A stretch of 8,220 nucleotides of DNA. Source: a virus. Lineage: Duplodnaviria; Heunggongvirae; Uroviricota; Caudoviricetes. Both the position numbers and the translations under genes were made by a program. Below, piece by piece: positions 3,014 through 6,862 of this stretch. The stretch's first letter is position 1. Every line of letters begins with the position of its first letter. The notes under the pieces were generated by a model. It was not told the origin of the DNA. It saw nothing but the letters and a program-made list of their open reading frames with translations, and made no database searches. The DNA is taken from the IMG/VR virus record IMGVR_UViG_2778261515_000002, positions 1 through 8,220 of that record; one strand, written 5' to 3'.

Positions 3014-3088
<75 letters not shown>

Positions 3089-3094
3089 ATATAG

Positions 3095-3167
3095 TGCCGA
3101 TTACCGGAATCGAACTGGCGACCCGGTGATTACAAGTCAGTTGCTTTGTCTGCTAAGTTAAATCGGC
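3095..3167 (-). tRNA. tRNA-like gene, tRNA-Thr(UGU)-like, non-canonical (possible pseudogene)
   Basis: Reverse complement is GCCGATTTAACTTAGCAGACAAAGCAACTGACTTGTAATCACCGGGTCGCCAGTTCGATTCCGGTAATCGGCA. Perfect 7-bp acceptor stem (GCCGATT/AATCGGC), T-loop TTCGATT, and anticodon loop CTTGTAA (anticodon TGT). But the D and anticodon stems have mismatches, there is an A-C mismatch in the T stem, and the 3' tail is CTA rather than CCA. Lies 6 nt from the tRNA-Gly. Confidence 0.4.
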
Positions 3168-3348: not shown

Positions 3349-4395
3349 TTAACTATTTTCTTTTATTTCGCTTACAGTCTGGTTAAATCTCTCTTCTTCC
3401 AGCTCCACACCTATTGCATGCCGTCCCAGCGATAATGCTGCTTTTATTGTTGATCTCGACCCCATAAAAAAATCAGCAACCAAATCTCCCGGATGGCTGC
3501 TGGCGGTAATTATCTGACGCAACATATCCGCCGGTTTCTCACAGGGATGTTTGCCGGGGTAATACTGCACAGGCTTGTGCGTCCAGACATCCGTATACGG
3601 AACGGCAGCCGATACGGAAAAATAACGCCGCAGAGATTTGTACTCATCCAGCAGGCTGGCATATTGCCGGTTCAGTTCACTGTATGTGCTGACCAGCTGG
3701 TGGTGTGGCTTTTCCAGTTCACCGCGCTGATGTTTTTCTGCTGCAACACGCGCAAACAACGCCTGTAATTTCAGATAATCGCCTTCGTTCGGCAACTGCC
3801 ACTGACTGGTACCAAACCAGTGCGAAGCCATGTTTTTCTTTCCGGTGGCTTCCGCTATCTGTTTTGCCGTTATCCCCAGTGATTCACGCGCATCACGAAA
3901 GTAAGAAATCAGCGGGGCCATGACGTGCTGTTTTAGTTCACGCCCCTTTGCCGCATAGCCGTCATTTTTGGGCAGGTATGGCCCCTGATAATGTTCTGCA
4001 AACAGAATGCGTTCTGTTGCCGGGAAATACGCCCGCAGGCTTTCCTTGTTGCATCCGTTCCAGCGCCCGGACGGCTTCGCCCAGATAATGTGGTTCAGCA
4101 CATTAAAGCGTTCACGCATCATGATTTCGATATCAGATGCCAGGCGATGACCACAGAACAGGTAGAGACTTCCGGCAGGCTTCAGTACCCGCCAGAACTG
4201 CGCCAGACATCGGTCCAGCCATTTCAGGTAATCATCGTCGCCCTTCCACTGGTTATCCCAGCCCTCGGGCTTCACTTTAAAGTATGGCGGGTCTGTGACT
4301 ATCAGATCGACAGAATTTTCCGGTAAGGTCTGGATAAATTCCAGGCAATCAGCGTTGATTAACTCACAACTGGATATTTTTACAGTATTAGTCAT
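3349..4395 (-). CDS. DNA methyltransferase, beta-class (N6-adenine/N4-cytosine family, DPPY motif), no restriction partner in window
   Basis: 348 aa from ATG at 4395-4393. Motif IV (LIVTDPPYF) lies near the N-terminus and the SAM-binding motif I-like segment (DFFMGSRSTIKAA) near the C-terminus; this circular permutation defines beta-class amino-methyltransferases. DPPY rather than SPPY favours N6-adenine. No restriction endonuclease gene is adjacent. Confidence 0.85.
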   Translation of the reverse strand: MTNTVKISSCELINADCLEFIQTLPENSVDLIVTDPPYFKVKPEGWDNQWKGDDDYLKWLDRCLAQFWRVLKPAGSLYLFCGHRLASDIEIMMRERFNVLNHIIWAKPSGRWNGCNKESLRAYFPATERILFAEHYQGPYLPKNDGYAAKGRELKQHVMAPLISYFRDARESLGITAKQIAEATGKKNMASHWFGTSQWQLPNEGDYLKLQALFARVAAEKHQRGELEKPHHQLVSTYSELNRQYASLLDEYKSLRRYFSVSAAVPYTDVWTHKPVQYYPGKHPCEKPADMLRQIITASSHPGDLVADFFMGSRSTIKAALSLGRHAIGVELEEERFNQTVSEIKENS

Positions 4396-4535
4396 AGATC
4401 AATAAGCACTTCTCTGATAGGCTCATACCGCTTTTGCGCAAAGCAGATGGGCCTGAGGTTTGCTTGTGACCCCAACGCATGAGCAGATGGCTGGCAGGTG
4501 CCGCTAACACCCACCAGCCGCCCATTACCACAAAT

Positions 4536-4559
4536 TAAAAAGCCTTCACTGCGGAAGGC
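4536..4559 (-). terminator. Intrinsic terminator after the small HTH gene
   Basis: On the minus strand the hairpin GCCTTC-CGCAGT-GAAGGC (4542-4559) overlaps the stop codon and is followed by TTTTTAATTT. Confidence 0.5.
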
Positions 4560-4743
4560 GTCTGTAACAACCGAACTGATAATCAGCCAGACCTGCCATA
4601 ACAAGCTGGGTCAGTATTAACTGGCAACGTTCGCGTGAAAGGTACGTATTCTGCGCAATTTCCCCGACGGTCGCCGGCTCGGTGACGCTTAATTCATTAA
4701 ACACCACTCTGGCGGTTTCGGTCATATCCTGCTGTTTTAGCAT
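4546..4743 (-). CDS. Small winged-helix DNA-binding protein, FaeA/PapI-like (putative regulator)
   Basis: 65 aa from ATG at 4743-4741 with AAGGGA 7 nt upstream (track ORF starts at an upstream TTG). The segment PATVGEIAQNTYLSRERCQLILTQLVMAGL has the helix-turn-helix pattern of FaeA/PapI-type regulators. Has its own terminator. Family assignment is by pattern recall only. Confidence 0.45.
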   Translation of the reverse strand: MLKQQDMTETARVVFNELSVTEPATVGEIAQNTYLSRERCQLILTQLVMAGLADYQFGCYRRLPQ

Positions 4744-5191
4744 GTCTTTTTCCCTTATTCCGGTTAACGTGACATACCAATAACTCTTGTCGAAAAAGCC
4801 AGCAAGCTGAAAGACCGGTATTCGCAACCACCAGCGCGTTTAACGTACTGCGCCGCTTTTCGGGCATAAAAAACCCCGTTTGGCGGCTGGTTTAAGCTGT
4901 GTGGCAAAGTGACCACTCTTAACATCATATTTAAATTTTTACGTACGTAAACCAGCACGAATTTACATTATAAAATACAAAAACAATAACTTTTCATTAC
5001 ATTTCAGAAGCGCATCTCTCATTACAAAAACATCGTCAATAATTACCAGTACGCATAAACGAGATCTTGATCACACTTTGAACCATTAAATAAACTCCAT
5101 ATCTTGAAATAGCCATACCGATTAGATGTATATTTAGGCCGCAGTGACAATATTTTTTAATAATAGTTCCGAAAAGGACTAAGGATTCACG

Positions 5192-6289
5192 ATGAAAAAA
5201 TTAACAGTGGCAATCTCTGCTGTAGCTGCGTCAGTATTAATGGCGATGTCTGCTCAAGCAGCAGAGATTTATAACAAAGACAGCAACAAACTGGATCTGT
5301 ACGGAAAAGTTAATGCCAAGCACTACTTCTCCTCTAACGATAAACACGATGGTGACAAAACTTATGCTCGTCTGGGCTTCAAAGGCGAAACCCAAATCAA
5401 TGATCAACTGACTGGTTTCGGTCAGTGGGAATATGAATTCAAAGGCAACCGTGCTGAATCTCAAGGTTCTTCCGGGGATAAAACTCGCCTTGCATTCGCT
5501 GGCCTGAAATTCGGTGACTACGGCTCCATCGATTATGGCCGTAACTACGGTGTAGCATACGACATCGGTGCGTGGACTGACGTTTTGCCAGAATTCGGTG
5601 GTGATACCTGGACTCAAACCGACGTATTCATGACTCAGCGTGCAACTGGTGTTGCAACTTACCGTAATAACGACTTCTTCGGTCTGGTTGATGGTCTGAA
5701 CTTTGCTGCTCAGTACCAAGGCAAAAACGATCGTAGCAAGCTCGATAACTATACCGAAGGTAACGGTGATGGCTTCGGTTTCTCTGCTACCTATGAATAC
5801 GAAGGATTCGGTATTGGTGCAACTTATGCGAAATCTGACCGTACCGACACTCAAGTTAATCTAGGGAAAGTTCTTCCTGGAGTATTTGCTTCCGGTAAAA
5901 ATGCAGAAGTTTGGGCCGCTGGTCTGAAATATGACGCTAACAACATTTACTTGGCCACTACCTATTCTGAAACCCAGAATATGACGGTATTTGCTGATCG
6001 CTTCGTCGCTAATAAAGCTCAGAACGTTGAGGCTGTTGCACAATATCAGTTCGATTTTGGGCTGCGTCCGTCCGTGGCTTACCTGCAATCTAAAGGTAAA
6101 GATCTCGGAGTATGGGGCGATCAAGACTTAGTTAAATATGTTGATGTAGGCGCAACCTATTACTTCAACAAAAATATGTCTACTTTCGTTGATTACAAAA
6201 TCAACCTGCTTGACAAAAATGATTTCACCAGAGGTCTTGGTATAAACACCGACGATATTGTTGCTGTCGGTATGGTTTACCAGTTCTAA
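5192..6289 (+). CDS. nmpC: Outer-membrane porin, OmpC/OmpF/PhoE family (prophage NmpC/Lc type)
   Basis: 365 aa from ATG 5192 with AAGGA SD 7 nt upstream; TAA at 6287-6289. Signal peptide [23 protein letters not shown] followed by [16 protein letters not shown], and a C-terminal ...VAVGMVYQF beta-barrel signature. Opposite strand to all phage genes, immediately downstream of Q as in DLP12 and PA-2. Codon usage looks host-optimised. Confidence 0.9.
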
Positions 6290-6310
6290 ATCTTTTTATT
6301 AAAAAAGATA

Positions 6311-6340
6311 TGTTGTGGGAGATATTTATCTCCCACAACA
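6311..6340 (-). terminator. 30-bp perfect palindrome, candidate tR'-type terminator downstream of Q
   Basis: TGTTGTGGGAGATA-TT-TATCTCCCACAACA is a perfect inverted repeat. On the minus strand it is followed by TATCTTTTTTAAT; on the plus strand it is not followed by a U-tract. Lies about 140 nt downstream of the Q stop codon. Confidence 0.45.
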
Positions 6341-6427
6341 TGTGGGTGACGCCCTCACGTCACTGCATTAAGAAAGACATTTTGTCTTTTCTTTTTAACC
6401 TTCTGTTATTTATTACTCTAAACTCTT

Positions 6428-6456
6428 GGGGGCGTTTTTGCGTCCCCTTTTTTATT
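6428..6456 (+). terminator. Intrinsic terminator of the porin gene (plus strand)
   Basis: Stem GGGGGCG / CGTCCCC with loop TTTTTG, followed by TTTTTTATT. Confidence 0.55.
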
Positions 6457-6478
6457 CAATTTTACCAGCAAACGTTAA

Positions 6479-6862
6479 TCAATAACATCTAACAACTTCA
6501 AGATCCATCTCGAGACGAACATCCAGTGCCATCAACATTCCGTCGACTATTCCTTCAGCCTTCTGAAGTTTTTTTCCTATATATCCATCAGAACAATGAT
6601 GCTTACGGGCCAGTGCCATAAACGTCATACCAGCCACATAATAATCTACCAGCAAATCATGCAAATCACTGTTGTTCTTTTTCAAACGAGCCATACACCC
6701 ACAAATAACCATTGCGTCATCATCACTACATTGCGGTCGCGATTTAACCTTTGAAGGAATAAGTCCCTTGAATCCGGCTGCAATCGATGACCAGGTGACA
6801 TCCTCATGATTATTTGCCACCCATGCCCCCCAACGCTCAAGAACCATCTGAATATCACGCAT
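6479..6862 (-). CDS. Late-gene antiterminator Q (small Q family, quuD/phage-82-like)
   Basis: 127 aa from ATG at 6862-6860 with AGGAGGTG SD upstream. Begins [14 protein letters not shown] and contains the Cys-rich segment [18 protein letters not shown]. Located before the porin as in DLP12 (quuD-nmpC). Confidence 0.8.

Follow-up and report, generated by a model that had tools for sequence, protein, structure and literature searches.

Two motifs in a prophage spacer belong to two back-to-back promoters, a predicted CRP-activated porin promoter and the predicted late promoter pR′

In a prophage of Escherichia coli, the spacer between a porin gene and a small gene on the opposite strand holds a perfect 14-bp palindrome, TTTACGTACGTAAA (4938–4951), and two GATC sites (5063–5066 and 5069–5072, both within GAGATCTTGATCAC), raising the question of what each motif does and whether the two act together. 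The window is the whole stretch of DNA analysed here, 8,220 nucleotides in length. A sequence-only reading had taken the motifs as candidate operator or methylation-sensitive sites of a divergent promoter pair, with the porin on the plus strand and a FaeA-like gene on the minus strand. We re-found both motifs where it had placed them, the second GATC ending 120 nt before the porin ATG (5192), and its description of the region as AT-rich was borne out by a GC content of 37.7% in the intergenic region (4744–5191) compared with 48.4% window-wide; H-NS silencing of this spacer is plausible on composition. We found that the two motifs belong to two independent back-to-back promoters in the 450-bp spacer. 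The proposed divergent arrangement is therefore retained, but the minus-strand member is the predicted late promoter pR′, which would serve the whole late operon and is not the small gene's own; likewise, both motifs are plausible protein sites, but of separate promoters and not of one system. We consider it likely, on the comparisons described below, that the locus combines a CRP-activated porin promoter with a pR′ in which the palindrome is the probable Q-binding element.

The window is part of a phiP27-like lambdoid prophage whose hosts are porcine and bovine E. coli, and positions 4300–5400 are 100% identical in five pig isolates, four of them named ETEC. The minus strand is the direction of phage late transcription. 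Read in that direction, replication genes are followed by the Q antiterminator, the porin on the opposite strand, the 65-amino-acid gene, a DNA methyltransferase gene (3349–4395) and then tRNA, holins, endolysin and terminase. The porin gene is accessory and antisense to late transcription. The three genes that frame the question are these:

5192–6289, plus strand: porin of the Lc/NmpC type, 365 amino acids (Pfam Porin_1, E=5e-155)
6479–6862, minus strand: Q antiterminator, 127 amino acids, a QuuD-like short member of the Q21 family (PF06530, E=5.8e-54)
4546–4743, minus strand: annotated gene for a 65-amino-acid winged-helix-like protein, homologue of phiP27 L23; first gene after the terminator tR′

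The DNA around the spacer is a mosaic. phiP27 and Stx2 phages such as ASU11 are homologous to the window over 3367–4940 and again from 6705, within Q, and homology to the lc/nmpC porin cassette of PA-2, 434, mEp332 and ev243 covers 5101–6464, with 88% DNA identity to lc/nmpC of PA-2, 434 and mEp332. The palindrome sits at the exact edge of the phage-backbone homology, and the GATC pair falls in a short segment that BLAST gave to neither block. Relative to phiP27, positions 4941–6704 form a replacement block made up of the palindrome, the porin and the C-terminal two-thirds of Q, with one junction in the conserved N-terminal part of Q and the other in a conserved transcribed block; from these junction positions, the DNA-binding half of Q and the promoter element were swapped as one. 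The roughly 105 bp from the palindrome to the CRP site (4952–5056) are without counterpart in PA-2/DLP12-type phages or phiP27, and this sequence is present in just 14 of 5426 complete E. coli genomes and one IMG/VR contig (L013). Between the converging porin and Q genes, just 3′ of the porin stop, there is a 32-bp inverted repeat, TGTTGTGGGAGATA...TATCTCCCACAACA (6310–6341), which is probably a bidirectional terminator. An Rfam scan gave two tRNA matches, none of them inside the intergenic region. The second of these is a tRNA-like sequence at 3095–3167 on the minus strand (45.9 bits) that adjoins tRNA-Gly(UCC) at 3014–3088; it may be a decayed tRNA, since neither ARAGORN nor the RefSeq annotation calls it. 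Its position corresponds to the tRNA cluster ahead of stx in phiP27 and Stx2 phages; the window is without a toxin gene.

As bare patterns, neither motif is remarkable. GATCnnGATC arises in 8% of first-order Markov simulations of the window, and perfect palindromes of at least 14 bp occur in 41% of such simulations, at a mean of 0.56 per window. The significance of both motifs comes from their context. GATC as such is twofold rarer than expected in the window (16 sites versus 32), and the nearest sites to the pair lie at 4397 and 5294.

For the GATC pair, the context is that of a predicted binding site for CRP; GATCnnGATC is part of the CRP consensus. The elements of the porin promoter that we predict are as follows:

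5057–5078, plus strand: predicted CRP-binding site AAACGAGATCTTGATCACACTT of the porin promoter (consensus match and homology)
5060–5075, plus strand: core of the predicted CRP site, centred between 5067 and 5068 and spanning both GATCs
5104–5109, plus strand: predicted −35-like hexamer TTGAAA (alignment)
5129–5134, plus strand: predicted −10 hexamer TATATT (alignment to Salmonella ompD), at a spacer of 19 bp
5141–5191, plus strand: predicted 5′ untranslated region of 51 nt, including the conserved GCAGTGACA block (homology)

Counted by eye, 18 of the 22 bases of AAACGAGATCTTGATCACACTT agree with the CRP consensus, AAATGTGATCTAGATCACATTT. Searching for the 16-bp core TGTGATCTAGATCACA with up to three mismatches returned a single match in the window, at 5060–5075, compared with 0.03 expected. 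The right half-site, TCACA, is complete (5/5), and the left one, CGAGA, is weak (3/5). The site has been annotated before in a relative: the PA-2 record J02580 places a CRP site (misc_binding, 1363–1383) upstream of lc, and its sequence, AGAGATCTACTTCACA, aligns with ours column for column. In the window and in PA-2 alike, the site lies 52.5 bp upstream of a conserved GATTAG block. GAGATCT...TCACA is invariant across 29 distinct lc/nmpC/yedS upstream regions, and similarity between window-type and PA-2-type upstream regions starts exactly at the CRP site. E. coli K-12 nmpC, in the DLP12 prophage, has an orthologous site at the aligned position. Outside prophages, GATCnnGATCACA, with both GATCs, is kept upstream of ompD-type porins at nine chromosomal loci of Salmonella, Citrobacter and Enterobacter, and the window core GATCTTGATCACAC equals the S. 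arizonae ompD-type site over 14 bases. Consistent with these alignments, genomic SELEX recovered nmpC, which is listed among the targets of CRP (PMC3105977), and ompD is activated by CRP (PMC5137417). Judged by this conservation, the paired GATCs are the inner bases of the two half-sites of a predicted cAMP–CRP activator site, of an ordinary and known type.

The promoter that this site would serve can be placed by comparison with the same relatives. ATCTTGAAATA, which covers the −35-like TTGAAA, is invariant in all lc/nmpC/yedS upstream regions, and TTGAAA aligns with the TTGAAC of ompD-type promoters. The 5′ untranslated region of Salmonella ompD is 69 nt long (PMC3333887); we infer a porin start near G5141, which aligns with the ompD +1 G placed by that length, the position being transferred from the Salmonella alignment across indels. 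The centre of the CRP site would then lie at about −73.5, and at −81.5 in S. arizonae with the published 69-nt untranslated region. Two alternative porin promoters were rejected: TATCTT at 5100–5105 would put CRP at −44.5, which is not a functional position, and AATAGC would put it at −52.5, also not functional, and lacks the final T. CRP at class I promoters is centred near −61.5, −72.5, −82.5 or −92.5. The two positions deduced above would both be close to class I ones, that in the window missing the canonical −72.5 by 1 bp; a spacer of 19 bp is unusual. A cAMP–CRP dimer on 5057–5078 would activate this lc/nmpC/ompD-type promoter with class I geometry, and the outcome in the lysogen would be catabolite control of the porin.

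The palindrome falls into a different promoter, which reads the other way:

4951–4946, minus strand: −35-like hexamer TTTACG of the predicted pR′, overlapping the palindrome
4938–4951, minus strand: dyad element TTTACGTACGTAAA, at about −34 to −21 of pR′ and overlapping TTTACG
4924–4929, minus strand: predicted −10 hexamer TATGAT, at a spacing of 16 bp from TTTACG
A4917, minus strand: predicted start of pR′ (promoter match)
4891–4923, minus strand: conserved block GTTAAGAGTGGTCACTTTGCCACACAGCTTAAA, spanning the start and shared with relatives
4868–4890, minus strand: predicted intrinsic terminator of the tR′ type, an imperfect hairpin CCAGCCGCCAAACGGGG followed by TTTTTT (homology and RNA folds)

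TTTACG-16-TATGAT is the sole sigma-70-type match in 4700–5250, and TTTACG agrees with the −35 consensus at four of six positions. The minus strand reads TTTACGTACGTAAAAATTTAAATATGAT-GTTAAGAGTGGTCACTTTGCCACACAGCTTAAA, then a hairpin and a T-run. Block GTTAAGAGTGGTCACTTTGCCACACAGCTTAAA is common to the window, PA-2, mEp332, ev243, phiP27, ASU11 and 119 IMG/VR stretches, and 2471 of 5426 complete E. coli genomes carry it; in PA-2, mEp332, ev243 and K-12 DLP12 it precedes the holin, with the palindrome at an identical offset. TAnnnT occupies the −10 position in all but one distinct upstream variant, across four clades of Q. The hairpin and U-tract lie about 27–50 nt downstream of the pR′ start and are clear in the relatives. 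A simple terminator scan of 4700–5250 called none, because the hairpin in the window is imperfect, and tR′ was assigned by alignment to the phiP27 and ASU11 hairpins together with folding. The initial transcribed region yielded no convincing −10-like sigma-dependent pause element; the sole candidate, (T/C)ACTT(T/C) at about +7 to +12 of the block, is a weak match and its assignment tentative. Holins and endolysin lie downstream of pR′–tR′. In ASU11, which is free of an insert, the Q stop codon is 38 bp upstream of the conserved block, and the pR′ region is thus the DNA immediately downstream of Q. The late promoter would yield a transcript of about 50 nt ending at tR′ unless Q loads onto RNA polymerase, and the porin gene would have been inserted between Q and Q's own promoter. 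Sequence comparison directly gives identities, positions, conservation and the co-variation of palindrome and Q; from it we infer the binding of CRP and of Q, class I geometry and the starts of both promoters.

Several further observations concern this transcript. The tR′ hairpin of the window is degraded relative to the 9-bp stems of phiP27 and ASU11 (−14.3 versus −24 and −22 kcal/mol in total), and such a weak terminator may permit Q-independent leak into the 65-amino-acid gene, the methyltransferase and the tRNA. Folding also predicts a small hairpin, GUGGU-N6-GCCAC, near the 5′ end of the pR′ RNA (about +2 to +17; 4900–4916, minus strand) in each of four phages, with one variable stem position, at which G-C becomes G-U. 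The 1986 PA-2 record annotates a second CRP site, ctgtgtgacgaagtaaccact (J02580 1067–1087), which corresponds to 4896–4918 in the window and lies within the pR′ transcribed block; the window has TGTGG where that annotation has TGTGA, and the late promoter accounts for the conservation at 4896–4918 better than CRP does. A DLP12 lysis-promoter fragment has been described as −121 to +650 (PMC7918800). By primer arithmetic, its +1 falls opposite the nmpC 5′ untranslated region, at about 5137 on the window's minus strand and not at pR′, and it neither confirms nor contradicts the predicted pR′ start. If real, a minus-strand start near 5137 would point away from the porin, and transcription from it would cross the CRP site and pR′.

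To see how the palindrome behaves among related loci, we drew on the 119 IMG/VR stretches with an exact match to the conserved transcribed block and on fetched phages, a sample that carries a sampling bias. The palindrome is kept at a fixed register in at least 70 related loci, and relative to the −10 hexamer this register is the same in all loci. It is short, its centre always falls about 27.5 bp before the predicted start, and its sequence differs by clade of Q:

Clade A: TTTAC..GTAAA arms; TTTACGTACGTAAA, with variants TTTACGATCGTAAA and TTTACAATCGTAAA
Clade B: GCGGTCCGC
Clade C: GCGTACGC
Clade D: GGAATTCC (phiP27)

Q was found at 98 loci, and at every one of them the palindrome was of the type belonging to its Q clade (A, 57; B, 20; C, 20; D, 1), with clade D effectively a single phage, as a search for more gave phiP27 copies only. 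The pairing holds at distances of 27 bp to 2.9 kb between Q and promoter and for all 21 unrelated families of insert, and within clades the palindrome core is invariant while its flanks drift. The Q proteins themselves have a near-invariant N terminus and diverge in the C-terminal helix-turn-helix. The window's Q, which has the same orientation as pR′ and lies upstream of it, is 87% identical to Q of mEp332 and ev243 and matches the Q21 structures 6P18 and 6JNX (E=1.9e-9). Q21 contacts DNA through S93, K94, H95, A124, T125, R127 and R128 (PMC6606751), and the residues that align with these contacts are TFM/GYGK in clade A, SKR/K(A/L)RI in B, SLR/GTRK in C and SAR/TQLK in D. In clade A, a change of the palindrome centre from GTAC to GATC or AATC coincides with changes at the start of the Q recognition helix. 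We also asked whether the palindrome could form an RNA hairpin; its predicted fold was not significant (z = −1.2), and the cores of the other clades are too short for stems. Because of the clade pairing, its survival of inserts and the accompanying changes in Q residues, we read the palindrome as probably the Q-binding element of pR′. The co-variation of Q and palindrome could partly reflect linkage by descent, and we found no insert family common to two Q clades, the kind of case that would prove reshuffling.

A broader proposal, which we hold tentatively and would as readily see fail as succeed, is that short QuuD-like Qs (about 115–130 amino acids) load at dyads centred near −27.5 and not at direct repeats. 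There would be at least four natural orthogonal pairs, with TTTACGTACGTAAA, GCGGTCCGC, GCGTACGC and GGAATTCC as the elements; specificity would come from a few residues of the C-terminal helix-turn-helix, with the RNA polymerase-contacting N-terminal part and the leader constant. The point that appears to be new is a clade-specific dyad where a Q-binding element is expected.

Insertions are concentrated between the Q stop and the pR′ palindrome, a hot spot with 21 unrelated families of 0.5–2.9 kb (4952–6478 in the window; related loci L008–L126). In 19 of the 21 families, the longest open reading frame is antisense to late transcription. Among them are the porin, a GIY-YIG nuclease (phiP27), a lipoprotein-like gene and several large proteins without a known function, which may be defence genes. 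All insertions lie upstream of the palindrome, and none separates it from the −10 hexamer.

Other explanations of the palindrome have to be weighed against a role in Q binding. It might be just the −35 region of pR′, with a symmetry that has no function and a match to Q clades that stems from descent or linkage. Such a view accommodates the four-of-six hexamer at 16-bp spacing, the frequency at which palindromes of this length are expected by chance and the closeness of Q and pR′ in insert-free phages, where they are just 27–38 bp apart. We nevertheless regard it as unlikely: four different cores occur at one register and all are dyad-symmetric, clades B and C are unlike TTGACA at the −35 position and yet keep their cores invariant amid drifting flanks, and the pairing outlasts 21 unrelated insertions. 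Alternatively, the palindrome could be an operator or target for a neighbour, either the 65-amino-acid protein, the phage methyltransferase or a porin regulator. Small helix-turn-helix controllers commonly bind palindromes, the candidates are close by, and all variant cores look like restriction-type palindromes, TACGTA resembling a restriction–modification site. However, the block of the 65-amino-acid gene and methyltransferase is 92% identical in DNA to phiP27, which carries GGAATTCC instead, and DLP12, PA-2 and mEp332 have the palindrome but neither gene; the 65-amino-acid gene also adjoins different palindromes in phiP27 and ASU11. Since the phiP27 palindrome differs and DLP12-type phages lack the small gene, the palindrome is not the operator of these genes. 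As for a porin regulator, the palindrome lies 241 bp from the porin ATG here and about 370 bp from it in PA-2, whereas its distance to the pR′ −10 is fixed, and clade A phages with non-porin inserts keep the TTTAC..GTAAA arms, observations on which we also rejected the palindrome as part of the porin cassette. A neighbour's operator is thus highly improbable.

The GATC pair, in turn, could be a Dam-sensitive switch, in a strong form through Pap-like phase variation with Lrp and PapI and in a weak form through competition between CRP and Dam that would make porin expression heterogeneous. In a Pap-type switch, two GATCs lie about 100 bp apart within Lrp sites. Those in the window are 2 bp apart. 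The strong form also calls for a regulator, and the sequence-only reading had named the minus-strand gene FaeA-like; that identification was not supported, as its 65-amino-acid product has no FaeA/PapI Pfam match at E values up to 10, giving only sub-threshold winged-helix-type matches (TrmB, at E=0.0026 and below the gathering score, MarR and winged-helix families), and a PDB search returned nothing meaningful. Moreover, phiP27 and ASU11 carry the small gene but no porin, and DLP12-type phages a porin but no small gene. In favour of a Dam-sensitive switch, CRP consensus sites contain GATC, both GATCs are kept in ompD-type promoters, and CRP occupancy leads to undermethylation, with Dam-dependent ON/OFF subpopulations at some CRP-controlled loci (PMC5155068, PMC7708049). 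Against the weak form, most lc/nmpC copies have only one GATC (AGAGATCTACTTCACA), so the pair is not required. Taken as a whole, a Dam-sensitive switch seems to us quite improbable. By analogy with loci at which CRP occupancy occludes Dam at GATCs inside CRP sites (PMC7708049, PMC5155068), a secondary link to methylation is possible, and the GATC pair as part of a CRP activator site remains the reading that we prefer.

Both elements also occur in DLP12 of E. coli K-12, and the finding is largely ordinary. It tells apart two regulatory modules that overlie each other in DNA usually left without annotation, and gives coordinates for the porin promoter, the CRP site, the late promoter and its terminator in a type of prophage that about half of complete E. 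coli genomes carry. It suggests that an inserted accessory porin retains host-type catabolite control, and that Q and pR′ must be co-inherited even when at least 1.5 kb apart. Should the palindrome prove to be the Q-binding element, the four clade pairs would illustrate the evolution of Q specificity, supply orthogonal antitermination switches ready for use and represent a second binding architecture in the Q21 family.

Compared with known porin promoters, the window copy of the CRP site is nearer to consensus than those of lc/nmpC, with three rather than four mismatches in the 16-bp core, a difference that creates the second GATC. The window shares GAGATCT...TCACA and the downstream promoter block with PA-2 lc, whereas the sequence upstream of the site (4952–5056) is unrelated, and in ompD-type promoters the CRP site is about 8–9 bp further from the −35 element. 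The likeness to the Pap/Fae switches lies in GATCs in a regulatory region adjoining a small winged-helix-like gene; unlike them, the locus has a 2-bp GATC spacing, a CRP consensus in place of Lrp sites, no FaeA/PapI match and no fimbrial operon. The closest model for the late promoter is phage 21 (OL657228), whose Q21 is the one relative that has been characterised; there the order is −35, a Q-binding element at −27 to −12, −10, start, pause element and a terminator within 50 nt. The window resembles phage 21 in its PF06530 Q, in a predicted constitutive promoter whose terminator follows within about 50 nt of the start, and in the late lysis genes downstream, and the position of the dyad, in the −35/spacer region, resembles that of the lambda and phage 21 Q-binding elements. 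The architecture differs: phage 21 uses a direct repeat, ATTGAGCA and AATGAGCA, spanning −27 to −12, the window would use a dyad at about −34 to −21, and a phage 21-like direct repeat with an 8-bp period was not found between the window's −35 and −10. Q21 has 162 amino acids and a long minor-groove loop, which is deleted in the 127-amino-acid Q of the window; with a different element and a missing loop, binding geometry relative to the paused polymerase would therefore differ from that of Q21. A further contrast with phage 21 is that, in the window, Q and pR′ are split by a 1.5-kb antisense porin gene.
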